64,000 nucleotides of DNA, taken from IMG/VR virus record IMGVR_UViG_3300032607_000125, positions 66,183 to 130,182 of that record; one strand, 5' to 3'. Shown here piece by piece: positions 436 to 60,165 of the stretch. The notes beneath the pieces were generated by a model, which searched no databases, had not been told where the DNA came from, and saw only the letters and a program-made list of their open reading frames with translations. The DNA comes from a virus. The number at the start of each line of letters is the position of its first letter. Position 1 is the stretch's first letter. A program made the translations under genes and the position numbers.

Positions 436-1551
436 ATGGATACAAATTTTCTCTCTGTTCTTTTCAAAGAATTTCCCGATGTTGTAACATCGAAGCAGGT
501 AACCCGCGCTCAAATCGTTGAAGTGATGGCTTTAACTGCTACGTCGAAATACCCTACTTGGCTTATGCAGAATCGCGTAGGCCGTGGTCTCTATGCTGTT
601 CTAAACGACACCATTGATGAAGTTCCACCTGAAGTTCCAACTCCTAAAAATCTTAAGTCTATGGTTAAAAATGAAGACACCGCATCTCTGATTCCAAAGG
701 TAGACCCTAACTATGTCGCCTTTGGTAATCATAAGGACATTGATACGATCATTAAGTCTAAGCAGTTTTATCCTGCTTACATTTCAGGCCCAACTGGTAA
801 TGGTAAGTCTACTACTGTAGAACAGGCTTGTGCTAAGAACAAACGACCTCTCATTCGAGTTAACTTGAATATGATGACTGATGAAGATCAACTGATCGGG
901 TCTAAGACTCTAGTAGATGGCAATGTTGAAGTGATTGAAGGACCGGTTTTGATCGCTATGCGCTCCGGTATTCCTCTTCTGCTTGATGAGATTGATGCCG
1001 GTTCTGCGAACACACTACTGTGTCTACAACCTATTCTTGAAGGTAAACCATTTTACTTCAAATTGAAGAATGAATTGATCTATCCTACTGAAGGCTTTAC
1101 TGTATTTGCCACTGCGAATACTAAAGGTAAAGGATCAGAAGATGGTCGTTACATTGGCACAAATGTTTTGAATGAGGCGTTCCTTGAGCGCTTTGCAATC
1201 ACTTTTAATCAGGAGTATCCATCTGCTTCTATTGAACGTAAGATTGTTATGAATCTAATGAAGTCCTACTCATGCGAAGATGAGGATTTTGCTGACACTC
1301 TAGTTAAATGGGCCGATGCAATTCGTAGGACTTTTGCAGATGGCGGAGTTGATGAGACCATTACAACCCGTCGTTTAGTACACATTGTTCGGGCATTCTC
1401 TATCTTTAAAGATAAGAAGAAAGCCGTTGAATTGTGTATTAATAGATTTGACGATATCACTCGCAATGCTTTCGCCGATCTATTTGAAAAGGTCTCAACG
1501 CCAATTGTTACAACTACTATGCCTGTAGCATCAACTGAAATCCCATTCTAA
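436..1551 (+). CDS. cobS: CobS/MoxR-like AAA+ ATPase
   Basis: Walker A GPTGNGKS, Walker B LLLDEID, ATANTKG, NEAFLERF and TRRL motifs. Confidence 0.85.
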   Translation: MDTNFLSVLFKEFPDVVTSKQVTRAQIVEVMALTATSKYPTWLMQNRVGRGLYAVLNDTIDEVPPEVPTPKNLKSMVKNEDTASLIPKVDPNYVAFGNHKDIDTIIKSKQFYPAYISGPTGNGKSTTVEQACAKNKRPLIRVNLNMMTDEDQLIGSKTLVDGNVEVIEGPVLIAMRSGIPLLLDEIDAGSANTLLCLQPILEGKPFYFKLKNELIYPTEGFTVFATANTKGKGSEDGRYIGTNVLNEAFLERFAITFNQEYPSASIERKIVMNLMKSYSCEDEDFADTLVKWADAIRRTFADGGVDETITTRRLVHIVRAFSIFKDKKKAVELCINRFDDITRNAFADLFEKVSTPIVTTTMPVASTEIPF

Positions 1552-1559
1552 GGACTTAT

Positions 1560-1916
1560 ATGAATTACACTACACTGAGCAAAACACAAAAGCGTTGCAT
1601 TGATGCTTTTATTACTATTCGCCCTGCTCTGGCGTCCCAATACAGTATTACGCGATCGGAGGTAGAAGCACTTTTTGCTGAACTACATTCAATGCGTAAT
1701 ACAGGCGGGGAAAAGATTGGTTACCCTATGTGGCTTGTCAAAGGTGACAAAGTTTCACGTGGTCACTATAAGTTCCCTGCACCAAATTTGATCGAAGCAC
1801 AAGAAGCTCAGATCAAATCTAATGCCAAAGCTGCTGAAGATTTGGTGAAAAATTCAGAAGAAGATAAAGAATATTTCACAGAATTGCATGCTTATGGTAT
1901 AATGGAAGTAGCTTAA
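1560..1916 (+). CDS. Hypothetical protein
   Basis: 118-aa ORF with AGGA RBS, in operon context. Confidence 0.7.
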   Translation: MNYTTLSKTQKRCIDAFITIRPALASQYSITRSEVEALFAELHSMRNTGGEKIGYPMWLVKGDKVSRGHYKFPAPNLIEAQEAQIKSNAKAAEDLVKNSEEDKEYFTELHAYGIMEVA

Positions 1917-1946
1917 CCGCTATATCATCAACATAATGGAGTTATC

Positions 1947-2192
1947 ATGAGTAAATTATCTCGACTTGAAAAATACCTGAAATCAGGTTCTACTGCAACG
2001 CCTCGCCAGATCACTGGCATGTTTGGATTGCAAAATCCAACATCGGCAATCCACGCTCTTCGTAGTGCTGGTCTTTGCGTGTATGCAAATAAAGCTACAC
2101 TTAGCACTGGTGTTACTACTGTTAAATACAGTGTTGGTAAACCAACGAAGAAAATGATTGCAATGGCGCACGCGCTTGGCATGTTTGCTTAA
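1947..2192 (+). CDS. Small basic, possibly winged-HTH protein
   Basis: 81 aa, GGAG RBS, TPRQITGMFGLQNPTSAIHALR helix-turn-helix-like segment. Confidence 0.55.
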   Translation: MSKLSRLEKYLKSGSTATPRQITGMFGLQNPTSAIHALRSAGLCVYANKATLSTGVTTVKYSVGKPTKKMIAMAHALGMFA

Positions 2193-2252
2193 TTAGATTG
2201 TACTTAAATGGGAGATTTTGATATAATAGTATCTTAATCTCCTATTTTAATT

Positions 2253-2585
2253 ATGAAAAGCAAACCAATACTTACACCGGCAGGTCGCAAATTTGATGGT
2301 GGTAAACTTCGCTATGGACTAATACCTCCTCTTGCACAACAAGAAATGGTAAAAGTTCTTACGTTTGGTGCAGAAAAGTATGAACCTGATAATTGGAAAT
2401 ATGTTGAAGGTTCTATCACTCGCTATTTTGATGCCATGGAACGACATGTTTGGGCATGGAAAATGGGCGAAGAGTTAGATCCAGAAAGTGGAATCCACCA
2501 CTTGGCCCACGCAATGTGTTGCCTTGCATTCCTCTATGAACATGATGTGAAATATACAAAGAAAGAACCAAATGGAATTAAGTAA
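2253..2585 (+). CDS. dATP/dGTP diphosphohydrolase-like protein (DUF5664 type)
   Basis: GRKFDGGKLRY, GAEKY..DNW, RYFDAMERH, ESG.HHLAHAMC motifs. Confidence 0.8.
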   Translation: MKSKPILTPAGRKFDGGKLRYGLIPPLAQQEMVKVLTFGAEKYEPDNWKYVEGSITRYFDAMERHVWAWKMGEELDPESGIHHLAHAMCCLAFLYEHDVKYTKKEPNGIK

Positions 2586-3228
2586 AGAAACCCTGTCGTT
2601 GATCAAGAACTTCGCTGGCATTAATGGCAGTCTGATGCTTAAGCAGGGAAATAAGTTGTCCACAATCTCAGAAGGAAAGAACATCATGGCAGAAGTGTCA
2701 ATTGATGAAGACTTTCCAATGGATTTTGGAATTTACGATTTGAATGAATTCCTAAATGTCGTATCGCTGTTCCCAAGCACTCAACTTGACTTCAATGAGA
2801 AGTATGTCATGGTGTCTGATGGTGGTACCAGCAAGATTAAATACTTTGCTGCAGGTGATGGTGTTGTTAAATCCGCGCCTTCTACGATTAAGTTTCCACA
2901 AGCCGATGTTGAGTTTACAATTGATGCAGCTCAACTGGCAATGATTCTTAAAACCTCTTCAGCATTGAAGGCAAGTGACTTGTCTATTGTTGGTGACGGA
3001 AGTACTCTTAAAGTTCTAGTGTCTGATAAAAAGAATGATACTTCGAATGCATATGAAGTTACTATTGGCAAGACCAATGAAACCTTTAAAGCTAATCTTA
3101 AAGTAGAAAATCTTAAGATGCTTCCCGGCGACTACGAAGTTTCTATCTCTAAAAAGAAAATCTCCCGCTTTAAAAGCACTACTGATCTCACATACTTTGT
3201 CGCTGTTGAAGCTGACTCGGAGTTCTAA
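2572..3228 (+). CDS. gp45: Sliding clamp
   Basis: MELSKETLSLIKNFAGIN, FGIYDLNEFL, YFVAVE; upstream of the clamp loader. Confidence 0.95.
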   Translation: MELSKETLSLIKNFAGINGSLMLKQGNKLSTISEGKNIMAEVSIDEDFPMDFGIYDLNEFLNVVSLFPSTQLDFNEKYVMVSDGGTSKIKYFAAGDGVVKSAPSTIKFPQADVEFTIDAAQLAMILKTSSALKASDLSIVGDGSTLKVLVSDKKNDTSNAYEVTIGKTNETFKANLKVENLKMLPGDYEVSISKKKISRFKSTTDLTYFVAVEADSEF

Positions 3229-3359
3229 TGGGCGAAGGTGCATTTAGAGGACTTGGTGAAGCATTTGTAATTGGCTTTATCCTTCTCTGCACACTAGGTT
3301 TTTTGGAAATTAGTGGACATTGTTATTTGGCTGTTTCAACACGTGAGCATTAATATATT

Positions 3360-4298
3360 ATGAGTAATCAGTATCTTTGGACCGAGAAGTATAGACCATC
3401 GACAATCGATGAGTGTATTCTCCCCGAAGCAATGAAGAAAACTTTCCGTGAGTTTATCGACTCCGGAGAGTTGCCTAATTTCTTATTCTGTGGCGGCGCT
3501 GGTGTGGGTAAAACCACAGTAGCAAAAGCACTATGTAATGAAATTGGTGCAGAATATCTCTTCATCAATGGATCAGAAGAATCTGGTATCGATGTTCTTC
3601 GTAGTAAGATTAAAAGTTTTGCATCTTCTGTCTCTTTGACTGATGCTAAGAAAGTAGTTATTCTTGATGAAGCAGACTATCTTAACGCTAATAGCACTCA
3701 GCCTGCTCTTCGTGGTTTTATTGAAGAGTTCAGTAATAACTGTAGGTTCATCTTTACCTGTAACTTCAAGAACCGAATCATCGAACCTCTGCATTCTCGC
3801 TGTGCAGTGGTCGAATTCAAAGTAGAGAATAAAGATAAGCCTGCAATCATGGGTGCATTCTATAAGCGTGTAGTTGGTATCCTTAAGACTGAAAATGTCA
3901 CCTTTGAGCAAAAGGTTGTGGTTGAATTAGTTTCTAAGTACTTTCCAGATTATCGTCGTGTTCTAAATGAATTGCAACGATACTCTGTTAGTGGTACTAT
4001 TGATTCTGGTTTGCTTGTCAATCTTGGCGATGAATCATACGTTGAACTTATCAAACACTTGAAGACTAAAAACTTTACTGAAGTTCGTAAGTGGGTCGGT
4101 AAGAATTCTGATACTGAATCGACTGAACTATTTCGCAAGTTCTACGATAAAGCTGTTGACATTCTAGAGCAAGGATCTATTCCTCAATTAGTTTTGATTC
4201 TTGCTGAGTATCAATATAAAGCGGCCTTTGTCGCAGACCGTGAAATTAATACTATGGCAGCCTTGACTGAAATTATGGCACAACTAAAGTTTAAATAA
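3360..4298 (+). CDS. gp44: Clamp loader large subunit
   Basis: LWTEKYRP, GVGKTT, ILDEADYL, SRC motifs. Confidence 0.97.
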   Translation: MSNQYLWTEKYRPSTIDECILPEAMKKTFREFIDSGELPNFLFCGGAGVGKTTVAKALCNEIGAEYLFINGSEESGIDVLRSKIKSFASSVSLTDAKKVVILDEADYLNANSTQPALRGFIEEFSNNCRFIFTCNFKNRIIEPLHSRCAVVEFKVENKDKPAIMGAFYKRVVGILKTENVTFEQKVVVELVSKYFPDYRRVLNELQRYSVSGTIDSGLLVNLGDESYVELIKHLKTKNFTEVRKWVGKNSDTESTELFRKFYDKAVDILEQGSIPQLVLILAEYQYKAAFVADREINTMAALTEIMAQLKFK

Positions 4299-9919: not shown

Positions 9920-11005
9920 ATGAGCTTACTAGATAAAATTAAAAAAAATACAACGATCAAAGATTCTGCAATTCTCTCGCAGAGTAAATTCTTCACCAAG
10001 AAGGATATGATTCAAACGGCAATTCCAGCAATGAACGTTGCATTGTCGGGAGAACTTGATGGCGGCTTCGTTCCAGGACTTACACTTTGGTGCGGTCCAT
10101 CAAAACACTTTAAGTCCATGTTCTCTTTGATCATGGCAAAGTCCTATATGGACAAATACCCAGATGCAGTCATGGTATTCTATGACTGCGAATTCGGTAC
10201 ACCAACTGCTTACTTCACAGCACTTCAAATCGATACTAGTCGTATTCTTCACGTTCCAATTATGAACATGGAAGAATTTAAATTTGACGTAATCAAACAA
10301 CTTGAAAATCTTGATCGTGGTGATCGCGTTATCTTTGTTGTAGACTCACTTGGCAATATGTCATCTAAGAAAGAAATGGATGATGCTCTAGAAGGTAAGT
10401 CAGTTGCCGATATGTCTCGTGCTAAACAGATGAAGTCTATCTTCCGTATGATTACACCTTACTTGAATCGTCTTGATATTCCAATGGTAGCCGTTAATCA
10501 CATCTATATGGAACAAGGATTGTATCCTAAGGCTATCGTATCAGGTGGAACTGGTGTTTATCTTTCAGCTGATAATATCTACATCCTTGGTCGTCAACAA
10601 GAGAAAGATGGAACTGATATCATTGGTTACAACTTCATTATCAACGTTGAAAAATCACGATATGTTCGTGAGAAATCTAAGATTCCAGTTTGTGTTAAGT
10701 TTGAAGGCGGTCTAAGCAAATGGTCTGGACTTCTAGACATGGCACTTGAATCTAAGCATGTTATTAAACCAAGCAATGGCTGGTACGCCAAAGTAGATCC
10801 ATCAACTGGAGAGATGGAAGAAAAGAAATGGCGTATTAAGGATACTGAATCGAAAGAATTTTGGAGTTCTATTCTCCTGGATGCTTCATTTAGAAATTGG
10901 GTTAAAGAACGCTATCAGGTATCACATGGTGATATCATTAATGATCACGAAATCTTAAAGGAAATGGAAACATATGCAGAAGACGACACCTCTGAGACCT
11001 CATAG
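9920..11005 (+). CDS. uvsX: RecA-like recombinase UvsX
   Basis: GPSKHFKS, YDCEFG, VVDSLGN, SGGTG, VEKSRYV. Confidence 0.96.
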   Translation: MSLLDKIKKNTTIKDSAILSQSKFFTKKDMIQTAIPAMNVALSGELDGGFVPGLTLWCGPSKHFKSMFSLIMAKSYMDKYPDAVMVFYDCEFGTPTAYFTALQIDTSRILHVPIMNMEEFKFDVIKQLENLDRGDRVIFVVDSLGNMSSKKEMDDALEGKSVADMSRAKQMKSIFRMITPYLNRLDIPMVAVNHIYMEQGLYPKAIVSGGTGVYLSADNIYILGRQQEKDGTDIIGYNFIINVEKSRYVREKSKIPVCVKFEGGLSKWSGLLDMALESKHVIKPSNGWYAKVDPSTGEMEEKKWRIKDTESKEFWSSILLDASFRNWVKERYQVSHGDIINDHEILKEMETYAEDDTSETS

Positions 11006-11357
11006 GGTTTTAGGTAAGACTTCTCCCACTGGTGAACTTCATGCCTTGTCGTTCACTAGTGGAGAATTTGCTGATATTATATTCTCATACACTGATGTCA
11101 AGTTTATTGAACACGATGATGCTTTAACTATTGCATTTGAGTATCATTTGCATGACGTACCTCATCACTTAAAAGACTTCAATACAGAAGTTTTTGAAAA
11201 AGAACTTGGTGATTTTATAACAGCGTTACTCTACTATGGTATTGAACGCGACAAAATGGGATTTATTGATGGCGAACAGAATAGAGAAGACGATTCTTTC
11301 GAATCTGATGCACAACGAAGCGTACTGCCGGAAGGTAGTGCCATTCCTAAAGACTGA
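10974..11357 (+). CDS. gp40-like protein
   Basis: Size and position between uvsX and gp41 match T4 gene 40; sequence similarity not confirmed. Confidence 0.5.
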   Translation: MQKTTPLRPHRVLGKTSPTGELHALSFTSGEFADIIFSYTDVKFIEHDDALTIAFEYHLHDVPHHLKDFNTEVFEKELGDFITALLYYGIERDKMGFIDGEQNREDDSFESDAQRSVLPEGSAIPKD

Positions 11358-11904
11358 GTATTTCTCAGATCAATTTGAGAAAGTTGTTGCTCAAGAGTTA
11401 GTAGCGTTCTTCACTGAATATAATAAGCCAGCATCACTTGAAATCCTTGCGATTCAACTCGGCAATCGCAAGGATCTTCGTGGTGAACAACTTGCTCAGG
11501 TTGAAAGCTACATCAATGAACTGACATTCAAAACTGATAACGATGAATGGTTGTATAAACACACTGAGGCTTTTTGTAAGAAGCAAGCGGTGTATAATGC
11601 AATCATTGATTCGTTTGAAATCATTGAAGGCAAAGACAAAGTTCGCAGTGAAGATGCTATTCCTTCCATGCTATCAGAAGCTCTTGCGGTTTCATTTGAT
11701 GCATCGGTTGGCCATGATTATCTTGAAGACTTTGAAGAACGATACGACTTCTATAATCGTACTGAAGAGAAACTAGAATTTGATCTAGATCTATTCAATA
11801 AAATTACAAAGGGTGGTCTATCGAAGAAGACTCTGAATGTTATTCTCGCAGGCTGCGTTCATCCAGATACTTTAGTTAGAGTGCGATTTAAGAAGAAAGC
11901 GTAA
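11269..11904 (+). CDS. gp41: Replicative helicase N-terminal fragment fused to a 16-aa split-intein N part (CVHPDTLVRVRFKKKA, 11854-11901)
   Basis: gp41 N-terminal motifs up to KKTLNVILAG, then Cys1 and a stop; true start ATG 11269 rather than 11236. Confidence 0.92.
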   Translation: MANRIEKTILSNLMHNEAYCRKVVPFLKTEYFSDQFEKVVAQELVAFFTEYNKPASLEILAIQLGNRKDLRGEQLAQVESYINELTFKTDNDEWLYKHTEAFCKKQAVYNAIIDSFEIIEGKDKVRSEDAIPSMLSEALAVSFDASVGHDYLEDFEERYDFYNRTEEKLEFDLDLFNKITKGGLSKKTLNVILAGCVHPDTLVRVRFKKKA

Positions 11905-12511
11905 ATCCTAATCTATATCCATTAGACAAGAATTCGTTTAATCTTTCTTGACGAATTCTTGTTCTGTGTTTTCCATTTGTTACACAAATCATACCTATTA
12001 ATGATTTTCCTCCAAGAGAAGCGTATTCAGATCTTTTTTCTTTATTGAAAATTGCAATTCCAGCTTTCATTTGTGATTGTGCGCCAATTTTACCACCTAA
12101 TGATGCATGTTCTTTAAATTTGTCTGGATTGTGAATACCAATCATATTCTTGATTTGCGTGGCTGCACCCATACGCCGCCATTCATTTCGTTCTTCTAAA
12201 GACTTTGAGAAAAATCCAATGTCATTATCTCTGCAATATTCACCAGTTATTTTGCGCTGATGCGATGTTAAATTTGCACCGAGCATATACATAGCCCTTA
12301 AATCATTTGGAGATTTATAAATTTTCCATAGTAAATAATGCGCAATAATGTGTTCTCTTATTGTCAAATATGTAAAATTAGAAATGTCATCAGTTCCACC
12401 AGCATGTTTAGGAATAATATGGTGCCTATGTAAATTAGAACTAGGTTTCCATTCATTTATGATTGTACTTTTACTCATACATAGATTATAATAAACTTTA
12501 TCGTAGAACAT
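11888..12511 (-). mobile_element. MobE-like HNH homing endonuclease, antisense, inside fractured gp41
   Basis: HHIIPKHAGG.D..NF..LT.REH..AH motif; AGGAGA RBS; TATAAATA on the minus strand at 12548-12555. Confidence 0.9.
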
Positions 12512-12547
12512 TGGTTTCTCCTAAATTATCGCCTGTACCGGCTAACT

Positions 12548-12555
12548 TATTTATA
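12548..12555 (-). promoter_or_regulatory. Late promoter driving the antisense HNH gene
   Basis: tatttata on + reads TATAAATA on minus, about 37 nt upstream of the HNH ATG. Confidence 0.7.
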
Positions 12556-12571
12556 CTCTAAATTGAAAAAT

Positions 12572-13750
12572 ATGACTTGGATCACAAAAGAAATAAAAAT
12601 AAATGACATTGAGTCTATGCTAGAAGACTATGATGTTGAAGTAGATTCTCCAGATGGGTTTGTCCCAGTATCTCTATTTGTTGATAAGGGAGAATGGGAC
12701 GAGTTTAAGTTGACAATGCTGGATGGTCGCACTATTCACGTCAACGAAAATCATCTATTTGAAACCGACTCAGGTTGGCAGTATGCTAAAGATTTAGTTG
12801 ATACTGGTGTTAATACATATATTAGCGATACTGGCACTTCACTTGGTATTTTGACAAAAACTGGAAATCGTATTCCCATTGTTGATATTCAGGTAGAACA
12901 CGAGAATCATAGGTATTATACTAATGGAGTATCATCGCATAATACTGGCGTGGGCAAGAGTTTGTTCATGTGTCACGTCGCCGCTGGCGCTTTAATGCAA
13001 GGTAAGAACGTACTGTATATTACAATGGAAATGGCAGAAGAACGTATCGCTGAACGTATCGATGCTAACTTGCTTAACATGACAATGGAAGAACTTAGTA
13101 AAGTTACTAAGGACATCTACGAGACTCGTCTTGGCAAGTTGATCAAGAAAACTGCTGGTAAGTTAATCGTTAAGGAATACCCCACAGCAGCAGCTCACTC
13201 TGGACACTTTAAAGCATTGCTTGAAGAGTTGAAGATGAAACGTAACTTCATGCCAGACTTAATCGTTATTGATTATCTAAACATCTGTTCTTCTGCTCGT
13301 ATGAAAGCCGGTGCTGGAGTTAATTCATACACCTTCATTAAGTCTATTGCAGAAGAACTTCGTGGTCTAGCCGTTGAGTATAATGTACCAATCCTTAGTG
13401 CAACTCAAACTACTCGTAGTGGATTTGGTAATACCGATGTTGGACTAGAAGATACTTCTGAATCATTTGGTCTTCCAGCAACTACTGACTTTATGTTTGC
13501 GTTAATCTCCACTGAAGAACTTGAGAATCTTAATCAGATCATGGTTAAACAACTTAAGAATCGTTATAATGATGTGAACTATTATAAACGATTCGTTATT
13601 GGTGTTGATAGATCTAGAATGAAATTATATGATGTTGAAGAATCAGCGCAGAAGAATATATCTGATGCTGGTCAAGATGATGGCCCTGCCTTTGATAAGA
13701 CTTCATTTGGTAAAAGGATGAAAAGTGCCGGTGACGGGTTTACATTTTAA
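12572..13750 (+). CDS. gp41: Split-intein C part (to His-Asn at 12938-12943) fused to the helicase C-terminal fragment
   Basis: Hint motifs EVDSPDGF, VNENHLF, DIQVEHENHRYYTNGVSSHN followed by Thr+1 and TGVGKS (Walker A), then TMEM, VIDYL, SATQT. Confidence 0.93.
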   Translation: MTWITKEIKINDIESMLEDYDVEVDSPDGFVPVSLFVDKGEWDEFKLTMLDGRTIHVNENHLFETDSGWQYAKDLVDTGVNTYISDTGTSLGILTKTGNRIPIVDIQVEHENHRYYTNGVSSHNTGVGKSLFMCHVAAGALMQGKNVLYITMEMAEERIAERIDANLLNMTMEELSKVTKDIYETRLGKLIKKTAGKLIVKEYPTAAAHSGHFKALLEELKMKRNFMPDLIVIDYLNICSSARMKAGAGVNSYTFIKSIAEELRGLAVEYNVPILSATQTTRSGFGNTDVGLEDTSESFGLPATTDFMFALISTEELENLNQIMVKQLKNRYNDVNYYKRFVIGVDRSRMKLYDVEESAQKNISDAGQDDGPAFDKTSFGKRMKSAGDGFTF

Positions 13751-13783
13751 TCGTAATGTGTTATAATTGTTATAGGAGAATAT

Positions 13784-14185
13784 ATGTCAACTAATTGGGT
13801 AAAAGACATGCAGGATATGCATGCAAAATTTGGTGTTAACACCGTGATTCGTGGATTGGATAAAGCAAAGCTTGCTGCATTCATTCAATTTCGCATTAAG
13901 TTCTTGCAAGAAGAACTAGATGAAATGATCGTATCAGACAATGGTGATGATACAGTTGATGCATTGATTGATCTTTGTGTGGTTGCTATTGGAACACTTG
14001 ATGCGCTAGATGTTAACGCATATACTGCTTGGGATCGAGTGCTAACAGCAAATATGACAAAAGAAATCGGTATTAAAGCGAGTAGACCTAATCCACTGGG
14101 ATTACCAGACTTGATTAAACCAGAAGGTTGGATTGCTCCAAGTCACGCTGATAATGTTGGATTGCTAAGTAAGGTACAAAAGTAA
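13784..14185 (+). CDS. MazG-like all-alpha NTP pyrophosphatase
   Basis: FLQEELDE...DALIDL..VAIG, WDRV..ANM.K motifs. Confidence 0.8.
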   Translation: MSTNWVKDMQDMHAKFGVNTVIRGLDKAKLAAFIQFRIKFLQEELDEMIVSDNGDDTVDALIDLCVVAIGTLDALDVNAYTAWDRVLTANMTKEIGIKASRPNPLGLPDLIKPEGWIAPSHADNVGLLSKVQK

Positions 14186-31484: not shown

Positions 31485-32834
31485 ATGAACGATGTAATTC
31501 ATGGTATCAAGGTAGATTATTCACGCGATAGTCTATTCGATGAACTTGGTAAGATTAGACTTAGAGAATCTTACATGAAAGATGATGAAGTCTCACCACA
31601 AGAAAGATTTGCATACGTATCATCTACTTTTGGCAGTAACCCCGAACATACACAAAGATTATATGAATATTCTAGTCTTCATTGGTTGTCTTATGCTACT
31701 CCAATTCTTTCTTTTGGTCGCAGTAAGCGTGGTTTGCCTATATCATGCTTCCTTAATTATATTGAAGATACTGCGGAGGGTCTAGTTGATAACCTTTCAG
31801 AAACTAATTGGCTCAGTATGCTCGGCGGTGGTGTGGGCATTGGCTTTGGCATTCGTTCTGCCGATGATAAGTCTACTGGTATTATGCCACATCTTAAAAT
31901 GTATGATGCTTCTTCTTTGGCGTATCGTCAAGGTCGCACTCGCCGTGGTTCTTATGCCGCTTATCTTGATATCTCTCATCCCGATATTATTCCTTTCTTA
32001 GAAATGCGAAAGCCTACAGGCGATCAAAATCTACGTACATTGAATATGCATCATGGTGTTAACATTCCAGATGCGTTCATGGACATCATTGAAAAATGTA
32101 TGCTTGATCCAGAAGCAGATGATTCGTGGGATCTAATAGATCCAGCAAGTCTTGAAGTTCGTGAAACAGTTTCAGCTAAGCACCTATGGCAGCAATTGCT
32201 TGAATTGCGCATGACAACAGGTGAACCATATCTTCACTTCATTGATGAATCAAATCGTAAGCTTCCACAATGGCTTAAGGATAAAGGTTTGAGGGTACAC
32301 CAGTCTAATCTGTGTTCGGAGATTATTCTTCCAACAAATAAAGATCGTACTGCCGTATGCTGTTTGTCATCATTAAATTTGGAATATTACGATGCTTGGA
32401 AAGATCACCCAACTTTTCTACGGGACGTGGCTGAGATGCTTGATAACGTTTTACAGTACTTCATTGATAATGCTCCTGACAGCATATCAAGAGCAAAGCA
32501 TAGCGCTACTCTTGAACGCTCTATTGGTATTGGTGCCCTCGGTTTTCATGCACTACTCCAAAAGAACAATATTGCATGGGAAAGCGTTGTAGCAAAATCA
32601 CTAAACATTCGTATGTTTAAAGGAATTCGGAGTAAATTAGATGAAGCAAATAAGAGTTTGGGATCTGAACGAGGTGAAGCACCTGATGTACAAAGCCTTA
32701 TTGAGTTTGAAGATTCTGATGGCAATACCCGTAGCATTAATTCTTCTGATTTTGTTAGCGTTATCCGCAATGGTGAAGAAATTTCTATTCGTGCTTGTGC
32801 CATCGTTGAAGGAGATGACATTCTGAGTTTATAA
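31485..32834 (+). CDS. nrdA: Class Ia RNR large subunit, N-terminal fragment (NrdA-a) with a 48-aa non-RNR tail (32688-32831)
   Basis: PISCFL, GGGVG, QG..RRG, SNLCSEI, VCCLSSLN, GIGALG; ends after GEAPD plus tail. Confidence 0.92.
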   Translation: MNDVIHGIKVDYSRDSLFDELGKIRLRESYMKDDEVSPQERFAYVSSTFGSNPEHTQRLYEYSSLHWLSYATPILSFGRSKRGLPISCFLNYIEDTAEGLVDNLSETNWLSMLGGGVGIGFGIRSADDKSTGIMPHLKMYDASSLAYRQGRTRRGSYAAYLDISHPDIIPFLEMRKPTGDQNLRTLNMHHGVNIPDAFMDIIEKCMLDPEADDSWDLIDPASLEVRETVSAKHLWQQLLELRMTTGEPYLHFIDESNRKLPQWLKDKGLRVHQSNLCSEIILPTNKDRTAVCCLSSLNLEYYDAWKDHPTFLRDVAEMLDNVLQYFIDNAPDSISRAKHSATLERSIGIGALGFHALLQKNNIAWESVVAKSLNIRMFKGIRSKLDEANKSLGSERGEAPDVQSLIEFEDSDGNTRSINSSDFVSVIRNGEEISIRACAIVEGDDILSL

Positions 32835-32867
32835 ATTTTATAAATACCATTAGGAGCAAAATTAAAG

Positions 32868-33404
32868 GTGATCCCAATGCAGTACGATAAAATTTACATA
32901 AGTATAATAGAACAAGCAAAATCTAGACAATTAGACGGATATAGTGAAAAACATCATATTATTCCACGTTGTTTAGGTGGAATAGACGATAAATCTAACC
33001 TAGTTGCGCTTACATATAGAGAACACTTTGTATGCCATAAACTTTTATGTAAGATGTATCCCGGAAATCTTAAGCTTATTTGTGCTATATCTTTTATGAT
33101 ATACTCTTCTAAAAAGAATAAGCGCTTGATAAACTTAAAGGATTTTGATTATGTGAAGCGTATGTTAGCTCCTCATATGGGATCATGGAATAAAGGTAGA
33201 GAACCATGGAATAAAGGTTTGAAAGGTGATGATTTTAAATCTAAAAATCCTAATCATAGTAAACCTCCAAGCATGATTGGTTATAAATGGATAAACAACG
33301 TAACTGAACAAACAAAACTAGCGCCAACTAAAGAATTACCAAATGGATGGACCTATGGTAGAATAGACAATAGAGGCGATAATAATGGAATGAGAAAAAA
33401 ATGA
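32868..33404 (+). mobile_element. MobE-like HNH homing endonuclease splitting nrdA
   Basis: EKHHIIPRCLGG.D..SNLV.LT.REHF..H; late promoter TATAAATA at 32839. Confidence 0.9.
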
Positions 33405-34018
33405 CATTTAAAGTAAAAAAGATTAACAAAGAACATGATGGAGTTGGCAATAGATTTTCGCATTGTTCAGCAATAGCGCCAAACGCATCAAGCAGTATTC
33501 TTATGGGCAACACTAGTCCTTCTGTTGAACCTTATCGTGCCAATGCTTATCGCCAAGACACTCTATCGGGTTCTCACCTAAATAAGAACCGGTTCCTTGA
33601 TGCTCTATTGCGCAGTAAGCTTAATGAAAGTGAACTGCAAGATGCATGGTCGAGTATCATGGCAAATGATGGTTCAGTACAACATTTGAATATATTAACA
33701 GACGTTGAAAAAGAAGTCTTTAAGACATCGATGGAAATTGATCAACGTTGGGTTATTGAACACGCAGCTGATCGCCAAGAATACATTGATCAAGCACAGT
33801 CTATCAATGTATTCTTTAGACCAGATAGCCACATCAAATATATTCATAGTGTTCACTTTTTAGCATGGAAAAAGAAACTTAAGACTCTTTATTATTGCCG
33901 CTCTGAAAAGATTGGCAAAGCAGACAAAGTATCGAAAAGAGTTGAGCGTGAAATCATTAAAGAAATTGATATGAGATCTATTGTGGAAGGCAATGATTGT
34001 ATCGCTTGTGAAGGGTAA
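33401..34018 (+). CDS. nrdA: RNR large subunit, C-terminal fragment (NrdA-b) with a 12-aa basic N-terminal extension
   Basis: RFSH..AIAPNASSS, Q.YIDQAQS.N, KTLYY, C-terminal CIACEG. Confidence 0.92.
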   Translation: MTFKVKKINKEHDGVGNRFSHCSAIAPNASSSILMGNTSPSVEPYRANAYRQDTLSGSHLNKNRFLDALLRSKLNESELQDAWSSIMANDGSVQHLNILTDVEKEVFKTSMEIDQRWVIEHAADRQEYIDQAQSINVFFRPDSHIKYIHSVHFLAWKKKLKTLYYCRSEKIGKADKVSKRVEREIIKEIDMRSIVEGNDCIACEG

Positions 34019-53911: not shown

Positions 53912-54607
53912 ATGCCGTTAGCAAGAGGTTTATCACAATTAGCAGGTTTAATTACTATCGATGGAAATGATGTAATTATGAATGGTGCGCTGGGTGCAAC
54001 AAATTTAATAGGAAATAATACTGGCGATGAAACACTAGCAACTATCAAGAGCAAGTTGGGTGTTACAACCCTCAGTGGTACTAACACTGGGGACCAAATC
54101 ATCCCAACAACTTTGCCAGCCTCTGACGTCTATGCATGGGCAAAGGCAACAATAAAGCCAACTTACTACGCCGCAGACGTTGGCTTGGGCAGTGTTGATA
54201 ACACTTCAGACTTAGCCAAGCCAGTCAGCACAGCCCAAGCCGAGGCAAACACCGCAGTTCAAAACGCAGCAGCCTCAGACGCCACAAGCAAAGCCAATGC
54301 TCGGCAAGCTACCCTAGTCTCTGGCACAAACATTCGTACAGTGAATGGTCAATCTGTGTTAGGCACTGGAGACTTGACTATCTCATCTAGTTCAGTGACA
54401 ATGAGTACAACTGTACCGAATACTCCATCATCTGGAGACCAATGGTGGGACTCTACAGAAGGCGCATTATATATTTATTATGATGATGGTGATTCTCTAC
54501 AGTGGGTTCCTTCTACAAATAATTTTGCTGGTCCAGTTGCAAGCACTACAGAATCAGTCGGAATCACTACAGGTAAATCAATTGCAATGGCAATTGTATT
54601 CGGATAA
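53912..54607 (+). CDS. Tail-fibre-like protein
   Basis: VGLG.VDNTSD..KPVSTAQ, LVSGTNIRT.NG, P..GD.WW...G.LY.YY.D motifs; late promoter at 53874. Confidence 0.75.
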   Translation: MPLARGLSQLAGLITIDGNDVIMNGALGATNLIGNNTGDETLATIKSKLGVTTLSGTNTGDQIIPTTLPASDVYAWAKATIKPTYYAADVGLGSVDNTSDLAKPVSTAQAEANTAVQNAAASDATSKANARQATLVSGTNIRTVNGQSVLGTGDLTISSSSVTMSTTVPNTPSSGDQWWDSTEGALYIYYDDGDSLQWVPSTNNFAGPVASTTESVGITTGKSIAMAIVFG

Positions 54608-54616
54608 GGAATAAAA

Positions 54617-54979
54617 ATGGCAAACCCCAACATAGTAAACGTCACCTCAATTTTTGGAAAAACTAACGGACTAGCAGTGACAACTACACCGACTGCAATA
54701 GTTACGAACCTTTCAGCTTCTAATAAAATTCTTAAAATTAATTCATTAATTATAGCAAATGTTAATGGAACATCATCTGCTGATATAACTGCAGATGTGC
54801 TTAAAAATGGTACAACTTCTCGAAGAATTGCATTTACTATTGCAGTTCCTAATGATGCAACTTTGGTGTTGATATCTAAAGATACCTCGATATACCTTGA
54901 AGAGAATGATAGTATTAGATTAACGGCAAGTGCTAACACCGCCTTGGAGGCGGTGTGTTCATATGAAGAGATAAGTTAA
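54617..54979 (+). CDS. Conserved virion structural protein
   Basis: MANPNIV.V..I.G, I.VP.DATL, YLEE.D, SYEEIS. Confidence 0.7.
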   Translation: MANPNIVNVTSIFGKTNGLAVTTTPTAIVTNLSASNKILKINSLIIANVNGTSSADITADVLKNGTTSRRIAFTIAVPNDATLVLISKDTSIYLEENDSIRLTASANTALEAVCSYEEIS

Positions 54980-55971
54980 TGGGATTTTATACAACAAATC
55001 AAGGATACATTGGAGTTGTTGGCAGCAATAGATCAACCAATTTACAAGTAATTGGTTCTTCAGTAGTATTAGGCGCAGTAGGATTGTATCCATTTAGTAA
55101 TTTTACTTTTACCAACGGAACACAAGTAGGCCGATTTGGGCCAGATCTGAGTAACTTGCTTAGTTCGTACAACACAACAGTGGACCCGTGGTTAACCGAT
55201 TTAGAGTTTTATAATGCTGTCGATGGGATTCAATTTTGGACAGTACCTGCCGATGGTTTGTATCAAATAACATGCTATGGTGCACAAGGCGGCGGAGACC
55301 AAGGCGGGTTAGGAGCAAGTATTAAAGGTACTTTTACGTTAACCTCCGGCGAAGTATTAAATATATTGGTGGGTCACGTTGGATTAAGTTCAACTCATGC
55401 AGCAGGCGGGGGCGGTGTATCTGCTGCATGGAGAAGTGATTTAACATTGTTAGTTGCAGCAGGCGCCGGCGGCGGCGTAACTCCTGGTGGCACCAGGGTA
55501 GATGGGTGCAACGGACAAATAGCTACATCAGGTAGTGTCGGGCAAGCAAGCCCTGCTTGGAATAACTATTCAGGTGGTGATGATGGCGGCGGCGGCGCCA
55601 GCTCATCAGGAACCGGCGGCGGCGGCTCAGGAGGAGGATGGTTATTTGATGCTGGATCGGATAGCACTGGCGCAGCTCAGGGCTTAGGTCGACCAAACGG
55701 CTGGTTAGGTGGAATCAGTAGAACGTCCGGTACTGTGCCAGTTACTGGATCGTTCGGCGGTGGCGGTGGCGCAAGTTCCGGCAGCCCTATAAATACATTT
55801 AATGGTGGTGCCGGCGGCGGCGGTTATTCGGGTGGTGGTGCTGGCGTGGGTGATGGTGACGGTAGTCCCGGTCGAGGCGGTGGTGGTGGATCATTTAACT
55901 CTGGCAGCAATCGGCTTAACCAAACTGGTATCGGCCTCGGCGATGGATTAGTGGAAATCGCACTTTTATAA
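54979..55971 (+). CDS. Glycine-rich (PE-PGRS-like) fibre/adhesin protein
   Basis: WTVP..G.Y.I...GA.GG, many GGGG runs. Confidence 0.75.
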   Translation: MGFYTTNQGYIGVVGSNRSTNLQVIGSSVVLGAVGLYPFSNFTFTNGTQVGRFGPDLSNLLSSYNTTVDPWLTDLEFYNAVDGIQFWTVPADGLYQITCYGAQGGGDQGGLGASIKGTFTLTSGEVLNILVGHVGLSSTHAAGGGGVSAAWRSDLTLLVAAGAGGGVTPGGTRVDGCNGQIATSGSVGQASPAWNNYSGGDDGGGGASSSGTGGGGSGGGWLFDAGSDSTGAAQGLGRPNGWLGGISRTSGTVPVTGSFGGGGGASSGSPINTFNGGAGGGGYSGGGAGVGDGDGSPGRGGGGGSFNSGSNRLNQTGIGLGDGLVEIALL

Positions 55972-55989
55972 TATGGATGAAAAAAAGAT

Positions 55990-57075
55990 ATGAGAAGAAA
56001 TTCCGGTATAATAGGTGAACAGCAGACAACTTCCACTGAACATGCTTCCGGTGTATTTGACTTGTTTGATGTATACAATGCTAGAAAAAATGATATGTGG
56101 CCGATTACGCCATTTACACCAATTTCAGCTTCACCTCCTGCATCAATATCAAATACATACAGTTTCAACTTTACTGGATCTGATCAATTATTCACTATAC
56201 CGGATAATGTAAATTGGATACTTGTAACGGCTGATGGTGGAGGAGGAGGTGCCGGTGTAAGCATTGCAACGCCTCCTGGACACGGCGGCCGCATTACAGG
56301 ATGGGTAATAGTTGAACCTGGCCAAGTATATACGGTTATTGCTGGCGGTGGTGGCTCCGGGCGAGGCCCAGCCGCTACTGCTAGGTATGGCGGTGGCGCT
56401 GGTGGCTTTAGTGGTATTCTTAATAACTTAGGAAATCATATTATTACAGCGGGCGGCGGAGGAGCCAGTCAAATAAACTTACCTATCATTACATCTGGGC
56501 TAGCAGTGACTGCAGGAGGACATTCGCTTGTTTTTAGTAATACTTCAGCAGCTGGCGGCCTTGGTGGGTTTGCTAATTCGAATACATCATCTGACTCTAT
56601 TTTAATTGGAGCAGCTGGGGCGTCAACAGGCGGCGGAGAGGGTGGAACTACGTGGAATGGCAGTTCGTCTCTTGACGCAGGTGGCGGTGGCGGTGGTGGC
56701 GGCTTTGGTGTTATTGCTGGCCTTGGAGGACTAGGTAATAATGGAAGCAATACATCAGTAAATAATACCGGCGAAGGCGGTGGTGGCGGTTATGGTGGTG
56801 GTGGCGGTGGTGGTGGTGGTGGCTTTGGCAGTCAAACACAACGTACGAATCCCGGATCTGGTGGTGGCGGCGGCTATATAGGAGGCCAAGGCGGCGAGAA
56901 TTCATTATCAAACCGACACAGTGCTGGCCAAGGTGGATGGAATTTCTTTTTTTGGTCCTCTAATCCTAGAGGTGGCAATTCGATAGCTCCTACTTCGACG
57001 CAGGGCGCAGGGGCACTTGGCGCAACAGCAGCAGGCGGTAATGGTGCTAACGGCACAGTAACAATACAATGGTGA
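55990..57075 (+). CDS. Glycine-rich fibre/adhesin protein
   Basis: FT.P..V.W..V...GGGGG, C-terminal GG.G.V.I.W. Confidence 0.75.
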   Translation: MRRNSGIIGEQQTTSTEHASGVFDLFDVYNARKNDMWPITPFTPISASPPASISNTYSFNFTGSDQLFTIPDNVNWILVTADGGGGGAGVSIATPPGHGGRITGWVIVEPGQVYTVIAGGGGSGRGPAATARYGGGAGGFSGILNNLGNHIITAGGGGASQINLPIITSGLAVTAGGHSLVFSNTSAAGGLGGFANSNTSSDSILIGAAGASTGGGEGGTTWNGSSSLDAGGGGGGGGFGVIAGLGGLGNNGSNTSVNNTGEGGGGGYGGGGGGGGGGFGSQTQRTNPGSGGGGGYIGGQGGENSLSNRHSAGQGGWNFFFWSSNPRGGNSIAPTSTQGAGALGATAAGGNGANGTVTIQW

Positions 57076-57197
57076 TCTTATGGTTTTTCAAATTAAATAA
57101 ACATAGATGATTAATACATTGTCAAATAACTGTGATAATATCAATAGTCCATTTAATATTATTTGGCTGACAGAGTATAATAAAATAGGAATTAAAG

Positions 57198-58466
57198 ATG
57201 GCATCAATTAACTTTCCAGCAACACCTTCTCTTAACGACACGTTCATTTTTGGTAATATCACATTTCAGTGGGATGGTGTGAAATGGAAAACTGTAGCAT
57301 CTAGTCAGTCGTCAAACACTGTATTTGCAGCCCCAAATGGGACTACAGGAACTCCTTCTTTTAGAGCGATTGTAGCTGCTGATATACCCACATTAAATCA
57401 AAACACTACAGGTTCAGCAGGTTCAGCAGCTACGCTTACTACATCTAGAACGATTGGTGGTGTTAGCTTTAATGGTTCAGCTAATATTAACTTACCTGGT
57501 GTCAATGCAGCAGGTAATCAAAGTACGACTGGCTCAGCAGCTACGCTTACTACATCTAGAACGATTGGTCTTTCTGGTGCAGCAACAGGTACAGCTACCG
57601 GCTTTAATGGTTCAGCTAATATTACTATTGCAGTCACTGCACTTAATGCCACTAATTTAACATCTGGGACAGTCCCTAATGCTAGAGTATCTGGTACTTA
57701 TACTGGTCTGACTAACTTGACTGGTTCAGGCACAGTTGACTTTGCGAAGTTTGCAGGGCTCGTTACTGACCTAGTTAGTACACCTAGTTTTACATGGACA
57801 GGTGATTTAACTACTGGTTTTTATAGACCTACTGTTAGTCAAATTGGTGTAACAATAGCTGGTACGCAGAGAGCATTGTTTACTTCTACTGGTTTAACTG
57901 TAAATGGAACTGTTACTAGTACAAATTTGTCGGGTACAAATACTGGCGATCAAACTCTTGCTTCTTTAGGTGGTCAAGAAGCCCTAGTCTCCGGCACAAA
58001 CATCCGAACCATTAACGGTGAAACCCTGCTTGGCGCAAGCAATATAGTCGTTACTGGTGCAACTGGACCAACTGGACCAACTGGACCAACTGGACCTGCT
58101 GGTGCAGATTCTACTGTTCCTGGACCTCAAGGCGACGGCTTTTTAGTAATTCCTCAAGTTGTGTATTCGTCTAATACGTTTTTACCTCTTAGTACTTCTG
58201 GAAAACATGTCTTGCACCCATCTACTGCTGTTGATTCTGTAACTTATTACATAAGAGGTACATATAATTGGGAAACAGGAACTGTAATTACAATAATAAA
58301 TCAAATTGGCGCTGGAGCAATAATTATATCAGAATATGAAAACACTATCATAAGACTTGCTGGTTCAGGTGAAACTGGCAGTAAAACATTAGATGCTGCC
58401 TGTATGGCAACATTGTTATATTTGGGTAATAATGAATGGATCGCAAGTGGTATGGGATTATCATGA
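57198..58466 (+). CDS. Tail fibre protein with internal repeats and a short collagen tract
   Basis: MA.INFP..P, two SAATLTTSRTIG repeats, (GPT)n. Confidence 0.8.
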   Translation: MASINFPATPSLNDTFIFGNITFQWDGVKWKTVASSQSSNTVFAAPNGTTGTPSFRAIVAADIPTLNQNTTGSAGSAATLTTSRTIGGVSFNGSANINLPGVNAAGNQSTTGSAATLTTSRTIGLSGAATGTATGFNGSANITIAVTALNATNLTSGTVPNARVSGTYTGLTNLTGSGTVDFAKFAGLVTDLVSTPSFTWTGDLTTGFYRPTVSQIGVTIAGTQRALFTSTGLTVNGTVTSTNLSGTNTGDQTLASLGGQEALVSGTNIRTINGETLLGASNIVVTGATGPTGPTGPTGPAGADSTVPGPQGDGFLVIPQVVYSSNTFLPLSTSGKHVLHPSTAVDSVTYYIRGTYNWETGTVITIINQIGAGAIIISEYENTIIRLAGSGETGSKTLDAACMATLLYLGNNEWIASGMGLS

Positions 58467-59269
58467 GTGTAGTACAACAAATTTTATTAATTCAAGGTAA
58501 TGCGTTTAGTCTTGTTACGCCAGGACAAGAAGAATTTATAACGCCTGGAACATATTCTTGGGTTGCACCAGCAACAGTTACAAGCGTTTCTGTACTTTGT
58601 ATTGGTGGAGGCTCAAACTTATTATATGGTGGTGGCGGTGGCGGTCTAGGTTATATAAACAATTATGCTGTTATACCAGGAGAAACATACCTTGTAGTAG
58701 TAGGTGTGGGCGGAATTAAAGATATAAATACCGGGCTTGGTGATGATACTTATTTTATTTCAATTGATGTTGTCTGTGGTGGTGGTGGTACAGCTGCCAG
58801 TAATACTACAGTTGGTTTTGGCGGCCGGTTTGTTGGAACAGGTGGCGGCAATGGCGGAAGTGGCGGTGTTGCTGGAAGTGGTGCTGCTGGCGGTTATAGT
58901 GGAGGTGGTCGAGGTGGAAGTGGCAAAGGCGCAAATAGTCAAGTTGTAGCAGGTAATGCTGGAAGTAACGGAGGTGGTGGCGGCGGTGGTTCAGGTTCTG
59001 GTTATTCGCCGGGCGGTGGCGGTGGCACCGGAATATATGGAATGGGCGAAAGTGGCGCTGGAGGTGATAGTAGTGGCGGCGGTGGCGGCGGCGGTTCAGG
59101 TGGAACTGCTGGAAGTAGTAATATGCCTTTTAGTATTGGCGGTGTATATGGTGGAGGCGCTTCTCATCGAGGTAGCAATAATGGTGGAACTGCTGGACAT
59201 GGAGCTTTACGCATTATTTGGCCGGGTGAGACTCGAAGATTTCCAAGTCTTAGAACAATAGATGAATAA
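58463..59269 (+). CDS. Glycine-rich fibre/adhesin protein
   Basis: F.TPGTYSW.AP..VTSVSV.C.GGG; GA.RIIWPG..R.FPS. Confidence 0.75.
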   Translation: MSVVQQILLIQGNAFSLVTPGQEEFITPGTYSWVAPATVTSVSVLCIGGGSNLLYGGGGGGLGYINNYAVIPGETYLVVVGVGGIKDINTGLGDDTYFISIDVVCGGGGTAASNTTVGFGGRFVGTGGGNGGSGGVAGSGAAGGYSGGGRGGSGKGANSQVVAGNAGSNGGGGGGGSGSGYSPGGGGGTGIYGMGESGAGGDSSGGGGGGGSGGTAGSSNMPFSIGGVYGGGASHRGSNNGGTAGHGALRIIWPGETRRFPSLRTIDE

Positions 59270-59278
59270 GGATAAACA

Positions 59279-59836
59279 ATGAAATATGCACAAATAAATC
59301 AAACGAGCACTGAAGCTATTCAAATAAATGAAAATGAAATTATTGCATGGGATTCAACTCATTTTTGTCGTATATTAAAATTAACAGCCGATCAAATTGT
59401 ACAATTCAAAATTGTAGAACTGCATGTGACGCCTGAACCACAAATTGATCCTATTACTCAAACTGTGATGCGCGATGGTTGCGAATTTGCAAATAACGTA
59501 TGGCAATATAAATGGTCAATTATTGAATTATTTGCTACACAAGAAGAGCGTGACAAAGCACACGCCGAATTAGCTGAAGATATGCGATTAGCTTCAATTC
59601 CATTTAAAGTCGATATGCGCCAAGCACGCCTTGCTCTACTTCAAAGTGGACATCTTTCAACAGTATCAAATGCAATTGCATCAATGCAAGGCGTTGATGG
59701 GGACGCAGCAAGAATTGAATGGGAATTTGCTGCGACAGTAATACGCGATGATTCACTTACACAAGCACTAATATCTATTTTGGGTTTAACTGATTTACAA
59801 GTAGATGAACTATTCACACAAGCAGGAAAATTATGA
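59279..59836 (+). CDS. Tail-fibre-associated/assembly protein
   Basis: V.MRQARLALL..G.L...IEWE.A...R...Q.DELF..A. Confidence 0.7.
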   Translation: MKYAQINQTSTEAIQINENEIIAWDSTHFCRILKLTADQIVQFKIVELHVTPEPQIDPITQTVMRDGCEFANNVWQYKWSIIELFATQEERDKAHAELAEDMRLASIPFKVDMRQARLALLQSGHLSTVSNAIASMQGVDGDAARIEWEFAATVIRDDSLTQALISILGLTDLQVDELFTQAGKL

Positions 59837-60165
59837 ACATATTTTATACAAACTTTGGTATACCAAAACAATTTGCAGGAATGACACGTGGGCCATTTGT
59901 CTTCATTCGACCTGAATATAAAGATGACATTGGTTTATTAGCACATGAACAAACGCATGTAAAGCAATTCTTTCGGACATTCTTCTTACATGGATTCTTC
60001 TATTTGTTTTCGGATACGTATAAGTTGAATGCAGAAGTTGAAGCATTCAAAGTCCAAGCAACATATTATTCCGGTGATACTCTTCCACAATTTGCAGAAT
60101 TCATCGCGAATAATTATGGACTAAACATCACTGCAGAAGAAGCGTTGACAAAACTTAGAGCGTAG
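59833..60165 (+). CDS. HExxH metallopeptidase-like protein
   Basis: LLAHEQTHVKQ, E.EAFK. Confidence 0.6.
   Translation: MNIFYTNFGIPKQFAGMTRGPFVFIRPEYKDDIGLLAHEQTHVKQFFRTFFLHGFFYLFSDTYKLNAEVEAFKVQATYYSGDTLPQFAEFIANNYGLNITAEEALTKLRA

Follow-up and report, generated by a model that had tools for sequence, protein, structure and literature searches.

A VidaL-type, atypically split intein in the Walker A motif of a fractured gp41 helicase gene from a T4-like phage

Anatomy of the fractured gp41 gene

The window analyzed here is a 64,000-nucleotide (nt) stretch forming the right half of the 130,182-bp IMG/VR record IMGVR_UViG_3300032607_000125, which derives from a T4-like phage whose closest cultured kin are the Methylophilales (OM43) phages Melnitz (about 70% nt identity across gp41). 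In this window the gene for the gp41 helicase is divided into two plus-strand genes, gp41-N (11269-11904) and gp41-C (12572-13750), which carry the N-terminal and C-terminal halves of a split intein (IntN and IntC), and between them an HNH open reading frame (ORF) lies on the minus strand (11888-12511). The N-terminal part of the helicase (N-extein, 11269..11853) comprises 195 amino acids (aa), from the DnaB N-terminal domain (Pfam DnaB) through AG, the first two residues of Walker A. It closes with KKTLNVILAG and runs directly into IntN (11854..11904), which consists of the 16 codons of CVHPDTLVRVRFKKKA (nt 11854-11901; net charge +4) and a stop codon (11902-11904). gp41-C begins with MTWITKE at ATG 12572; alignment with relatives makes an in-frame TTG upstream, at 12563, a less likely start. 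Its first 124 residues are IntC (12572..12943; net charge -14), which contains block B NENH, block F VDIQVEHENH and block G SSHN and closes with GVSSHN. TGVGKS follows from 12944, so that the C-terminal part of the helicase (C-extein, 12944..13750; 268 aa and a stop codon) opens at Thr+1 and contains the RecA-fold ATPase core (Pfam DnaB_C). The 130-kb record holds one gp41 copy and one intein.

The position of the break is defined by uninterrupted homologues. Melnitz gp41 reads LAG/TGVGKS at the equivalent site, and its amino acid identity to the window protein is 52-55% over the full length of both halves (55% for the C-extein). In the profile of phrog_19 (PHROG DnaB helicase), the N-extein covers positions 158-361, ending at the last extein residue, and positions 362-589 are matched by gp41-C from residue 125 on. 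A sequence-only reading of this window had proposed a gp41 helicase cut within Walker A, with a 16-aa IntN starting at Cys1, an IntC of about 124 aa followed by Thr+1, and an endonuclease gene between the halves. The break at 361/362 of phrog_19 and the Melnitz alignment support the site, translation reproduces the lengths and coordinates, Cys follows LAG and Thr follows SSHN as proposed, and the HNH ORF provides the free-standing endonuclease.

The same reading held that excision would restore ILAG-TGVGKS, which agrees with the collinearity of the extein-only protein (463 residues) with intein-free alleles of equal length. The closest N-extein relatives in IMG/VR (L048-L055) are intein-free and 92-93% identical in amino acid sequence; two of them, L050 and L055, have genes of 1392 nt, exactly the extein-only coding length of the window gene, and 95-96% amino acid identity. 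Among close relatives, the insert, made up of the IntN tail, the HNH gene and IntC, is thus either cleanly present or cleanly absent, a polymorphism that is the signature of a mobile intein. Over the 60 nt around the insertion (11824-11853 and 12944-12973), the window differs from L050 and L055 by about 10 synonymous changes, including a switch of Ser codon family (AGT versus TCA), and by no amino acid change. We considered whether these differences reflect immunity of the endonuclease target, but the identity at the junction (77-84%, versus 87-88% gene-wide) is too weak a signal to call.

Relationship to VidaL and conservation of the intein

Searches with IntC alone returned no Pfam family, even at E 10, and a PF14890 search of the genome gave no match, as these models do not reach so diverged an intein; homology was therefore taken from PDB and metagenome searches. 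The best PDB match of IntC was VidaL (6vgv, E 1.1e-9) and the second was the gp41-1 intein (E 1e-5), in line with the VidaL-like nature assigned to the intein from the letters alone. The 23-residue IntN region gave no match in the PDB, the query being too short. According to PMC13014065, which cites Neugebauer 2017 and Burton 2020, VidaL (PDB 6vgv/6vgw) is a natural, cysteine-dependent intein of the S1 atypically split type with a 16-aa IntN. The window IntC is 31% identical to native VidaL IntC. When a contiguous relative, L002, was compared with the fused VidaL crystal construct, residues 3-144 were aligned (E 1.7e-13), and through this alignment the natural breaks coincide, with IRLTKKG/MIEEKK in VidaL and RFKKKA, stop, MTWITKE in the window.

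An AlphaFold2 (AF2) model of this contiguous relative (predicted local distance difference test score, pLDDT, 96.2) places the split loop, residues 14-19, between strands 7-13 and 20-25. In a Foldseek search with the model of the contiguous relative, the top match was 6vgv (template modelling (TM) scores 0.89/0.86, root mean square deviation 1.6 Å), and the matches ranked below it were inteins and the HINT domains of Hedgehog and bacterial intein-like (BIL) proteins, with nothing else among them. The model of the window IntC alone had a pLDDT of 87.7 and was poorest in the final 30 residues, which fits an incomplete domain awaiting IntN.

The residues expected of a class-1 intein are all present, and they are conserved over at least 120 protein clusters. 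The Cys1 codon (11854-11856) stands directly after LAG and is invariant in nine related loci, and the IntN consensus CVHP[DE]T..[KR][VI]R..K holds in nine distinct related loci. The block B His (NENHLF) is invariant in two alignments (A2 and A3), and the D, H, H and N of blocks F and G, which read VDIQVEHENHRYY...SSHN in the window, are invariant across the gp41 and UvsX families. A pattern count over the 120 best database clusters gave Thr directly after SHN in 116, and the +1 Thr codon of the window lies at 12944. The ratio of the proportions of nonsynonymous and synonymous differences (pN/pS) among nine loci came to 0.25 (IntN) and 0.37 (IntC), and at a pS of about 0.75 the synonymous sites are almost saturated; judged by these ratios, both pieces are under purifying selection.

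The native VidaL contig was recognized as L027 (IMGVR_UViG_3300001097_000690, 1177-3853), which is 100% identical over 76 aa of the PDB-printed VidaL sequence. There the N gene ends in GKVTVFAGESG followed by CLPKEAVVQIRLTKKG and a stop codon, and the C gene, a Pfam RecA protein, reads GIVSHN/SGKSYF; gp32 lies upstream and a 373-aa plus-strand ORF (phrog_22677, unknown function) lies between the halves. In L029, which is 97% identical to L027, there is no gene between the halves. VidaL therefore interrupts a UvsX/RecA-type recombinase, at GESG/SGKS. We did not find the host gene of VidaL in the literature, primary VidaL reports apart. Neugebauer et al. reportedly used the name 'VidaL T4Lh-1', which, if so, perhaps already denotes a helicase-borne relative. 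A VidaL-type split UvsX is also present in a cultured jumbo phage, Pseudomonas phage PA5oct (NC_071039; L047, 766-3772), where IntN has 17 aa. The N piece, an 81-aa 'hypothetical protein', ends in GESG followed by CLPETAKVKIRLSKKQS and a stop codon; a 477-aa ORF without annotated function comes next, and then a 'UvsX-like recombinase' with an IntC ending SSHN/SGKS, whose product was, according to the record, detected by tandem mass spectrometry.

The window intein shares with VidaL a homologous HINT domain, a split loop after strand 2, Cys1, a 16-residue IntN, and a basic IntN pattern, C-[VL]-x-x-[DE]-x-x-V-x-[VI]-R-x-x-K-K. Both also lie within the P-loop of a RecA-fold ATPase of phage replication or recombination, with a free-standing gene between the halves. 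Unlike VidaL, the window intein interrupts gp41 and not UvsX, and its insertion point (AG/TGVGKS) lies two residues earlier in the paralogous Walker A; its +1 residue is Thr, versus Ser in VidaL, and the intervening gene is an antisense HNH gene, versus the 373-aa plus-strand ORF of unknown family. Since host gene and site differ, the window intein is a relative of VidaL at another site and not the same allele.

Other known systems are similar in part. In the fractured genes described by Dassa et al. 2009 (gp41-1 to gp41-9; PMC2677866), as in the window, a T4-like gp41 lies in two adjacent genes, the split-intein halves flank a free-standing endonuclease gene, and T4-late-promoter-like elements precede the endonuclease. 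Those gp41 inteins are canonically split, with a long IntN and an IntC of about 35-40 aa, and lie at other gp41 positions (for gp41-1 to -7, P-SSM2 residue 356, HN/SSSDV; PMC2677866), whereas the window intein has the S1 split and lies in Walker A; their endonucleases are GIY-YIG or Vsr-like, in contrast to the antisense HNH gene found here. The window locus thus has the adjacent intein halves and intervening endonuclease gene of a fractured gene, and has neither the canonical split site nor a GIY-YIG or Vsr-like endonuclease. PolB16 OarG, a natural atypically split intein with a 15-aa IntN (PMC10189870), and the AceL-TerL and GOS-TerL inteins, whose IntN has 25-37 aa (PMC11766414), resemble the window intein in that the IntN is short and the IntC long, in coming from phages or metagenomes, and in lying within DNA-metabolism genes. 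In the TerL inteins the split lies at S2, behind helix 1 (PMC13014065), and PolB16 is a Ser1/Ser+1 intein, unlike the Cys1/Thr+1 window intein; its structure matches weakly in Foldseek (rank 39-40, TM 0.5-0.6).

Relatives, split states and endonuclease genes

A search of 5.8 billion proteins with IntC (E <= 1e-3) returned 345 matching clusters, none of them labelled an intein in its source. Together with the VidaL match, these clusters show that the resemblance to inteins does not arise by chance. The short-IntN type had been described as rare in the sequence-only reading, but this number of metagenome clusters makes it commoner than assumed. Nineteen protein clusters are 90-98% identical and occur on up to 51 contigs. 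In IMG/VR, 20 loci carry an IntC with 47-69% identity, all of them in gp41 at LAG/C...SSHN/TG.GKS, and in five of these (L002-4, L017/18) the intein is contiguous in a single frame. In the cultured phages of INPHARED the gp41 version was found in none, the best matches having less than 37% identity.

Among the best 120 of the 345 clusters, 111 have the size of a split form (372-409 aa) and nine that of a contiguous form (567-611 aa). In a FastTree phylogeny of IntC plus C-extein (P0001-P0120), the nine contiguous forms are interleaved with the split ones, and six state changes are needed; at least five changes between the split and contiguous states are forced by well-supported branches, in a quick tree whose labels were taken from protein length, and a similar picture could arise from homing of the intein between lineages. 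This distribution suggests that fracture or re-fusion happened repeatedly at a single loop. The DNA between the split halves of relatives also varies, and contains an antisense HNH gene, a sense HNH gene (L014/16) or no gene (L005, L008).

Some relatives show further arrangements. In L014 (3257-3301) and L016, where the HNH gene runs in the sense direction, IntN has only 14 residues, CVHPDTKIRVRIRK, followed by a stop codon, and is shorter than those of the characterized PolB16 and VidaL (15-16 aa). In L008 (766-3828), L010 (2480-6750) and L011-L013, gp41 lies in three genes, which contain the S1-split intein in Walker A and a second, canonically split intein of the gp41-1 type, reading HLFYANGILTHN/SSSDV in L008; a separate ORF lies within each of the two splits, HNH-like in L008 and of 359 aa in L010.

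The HNH gene of the window (11888..12511, minus strand) encodes 207 aa, matches Pfam HNH and phrog_655 'homing endonuclease', and is convergent with gp41-N, whose final 17 nt it overlaps. Homologues with 47-53% identity occupy the equivalent position, in the same orientation, in L007, L009, L010-13 and L020/21. The IntC of loci with the matching antisense HNH gene is 47-69% identical to that of the window; since the layout is kept across such diverged IntC sequences, the arrangement is old and maintained. Upstream of the HNH start codon (ATG, 12511) lie an AGGAG ribosome-binding site (12518-12522) and TATAAATA (12548-12555), a match to the T4 late-promoter consensus and its sole minus-strand occurrence in the window. 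Another HNH gene in the window (32868) is likewise preceded by TATAAATA, at 32839-32846, some 30 nt ahead of it. Window-wide the motif is not enriched (10 found versus 6.5 expected); its position ahead of both HNH genes is suggestive, and it may act as a promoter. Matches to sigma-70-like promoters were no commoner in the window than in shuffled sequence, and nothing was concluded from them.

The genome contains two further paralogues of the HNH gene. One of them (32868-33404) lies within nrdA, the gene for the large subunit of class I ribonucleotide reductase (31485-34018), which is divided around it into two genes without intein hallmarks. Compared with PDB 6dqw, in which the break corresponds to residues 408/414, the N piece has about 49 aa of extra tail and the C piece about 13 aa of extra head. 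We take this layout to resemble the mobE-split nrdA of phage Aeh1.

Elsewhere in the window, uvsX (9920-11005) and then a small ORF lie upstream of gp41-N. The region 54000-60000 has a G+C content of 0.42-0.46, versus about 0.37 elsewhere, and five successive plus-strand ORFs at 54979-59836 have no Pfam match.

Predicted splicing, alternatives and significance

Taking these results together, the window very probably carries a class-1 intein of the VidaL type that is naturally split after the second beta-strand (S1), interrupts gp41 between Walker A residues 2 and 3 (AG/TGVGKS), and splices in trans. The two halves are probably co-transcribed, since no terminator-like site was found between them on the plus strand. 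The products would be gp41N(195)-IntN(16) and IntC(124)-gp41C(268), and the basic IntN would dock on the acidic, incomplete IntC, to which it would add strands 1 and 2 of the HINT fold; where the split-intein halves of fractured genes meet, local charges of opposite sign were described by Dassa et al. (PMC2677866). Cys1 would then form a thioester, attack by Thr+1 would give a branched ester, and Asn124 would cyclize with the help of the penultimate His, freeing the intein. An O-to-N shift would leave a native Gly-Thr bond and restore AGTGVGKS in a 463-residue helicase with the layout of the intein-free alleles, for which the expected tryptic junction peptide is TLNVILAGTGVGK. The antisense HNH gene would serve as the mobility module and is probably expressed late; its product would cut the intein-free gp41 of relatives infecting the same cell, and the entire cassette would be copied in during repair.

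Several points weigh against this interpretation. The evidence for the full fold comes from the contiguous relative, which is 68% identical to the window intein, gp41-C has no obvious Shine-Dalgarno sequence or promoter of its own, and the position of the block B Thr is occupied by Asn (NENH) throughout the gp41 family, unlike in most inteins. The last of these would favor a splicing-incompetent intein, in which the intein halves would keep the helicase pieces together without a covalent bond, or a usable fragment would be freed by C-terminal cleavage only, comparable to enzymes encoded by intein-free genes in pieces; the nrdA gene of the same genome, split by an HNH gene without an intein, indicates that this phage tolerates such genes. 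Against this stand the catalytic residues, which are all kept in the nine loci, with Thr+1 in nearly all of the best clusters, and would not be expected of a mere docking module; moreover, an unspliced domain of 140 residues in the P-loop would part AG from TGVGKS, and VidaL, the nearest solved relative, splices fast according to PMC13014065. We therefore regard splicing incompetence as improbable.

We likewise think it very improbable that gp41 is a dead gene broken by a selfish HNH insertion, its role being taken by another helicase of host or phage. The record is just about 80% complete, which leaves room for a second helicase and is a further point against our interpretation, but no second gp41 was found in it. 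Both gp41 halves are intact ORFs that retain their identity to Melnitz gp41 over the full length, the intein pieces are subject to purifying selection by the measure given above, and the split arrangement is kept in many diverged phages. Joining of the halves at the RNA level, by an intron or trans-splicing, and an assembly artefact both appear hardly credible: we found nothing in their support, an Rfam scan of 11000-14000 (E <= 1) returned no family, group I and II introns included, the intervening HNH gene lies on the opposite strand, and the identical layout recurs in independent metagenome contigs, including the 19 near-identical clusters. From the conservation of the catalytic residues, the purifying selection and the single gp41 copy, we infer that the intein is probably active and that splicing of gp41 would be required for replication, as the sequence-only reading had put it.

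Natural S1-split inteins of the VidaL type were already known as a kind, and the window locus is a diverged member of that kind in a fractured-gene layout; it leaves the current understanding of inteins unchanged, and its biological interest is moderate. Relative to the literature consulted, what is new is that the host gene of VidaL is uvsX, so that the clade spans two P-loop sites. A bolder reading, somewhat less likely than not, is that the gp41 Walker A intein is one branch of a large, naturally S1-split clade that moved between the P-loops of the paralogous RecA-fold ATPases UvsX (VidaL) and gp41, two residues apart, and that in the gp41 branch there were at least five switches between contiguous and split states, the endonuclease gene at this one loop being an antisense HNH gene, a sense HNH gene or absent. 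If this is true, the S1 loop would be, next to the canonical site, a second place where free-standing homing endonuclease genes repeatedly land or leave, and dozens of natural, mutually diverged IntN tags of 14-18 residues would exist.

Split inteins with a short IntN are wanted for protein semisynthesis, as an IntN of that size is accessible by peptide synthesis, and of the cysteine-dependent inteins that PMC13014065 lists as splicing well, VidaL is the only one whose IntN is so short. The window locus adds a diverged natural Cys1/Thr+1 relative of VidaL with a 16-residue IntN, a candidate for peptide-tag trans-splicing, and brings with it a natural set of variants comprising IntN pieces of 14-18 residues, contiguous forms and intein-free target alleles. 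For the phages themselves, the presence/absence polymorphism is as expected for an actively homing element, and the only replicative helicase detected in this phage would depend on trans-splicing within its ATP-binding loop.

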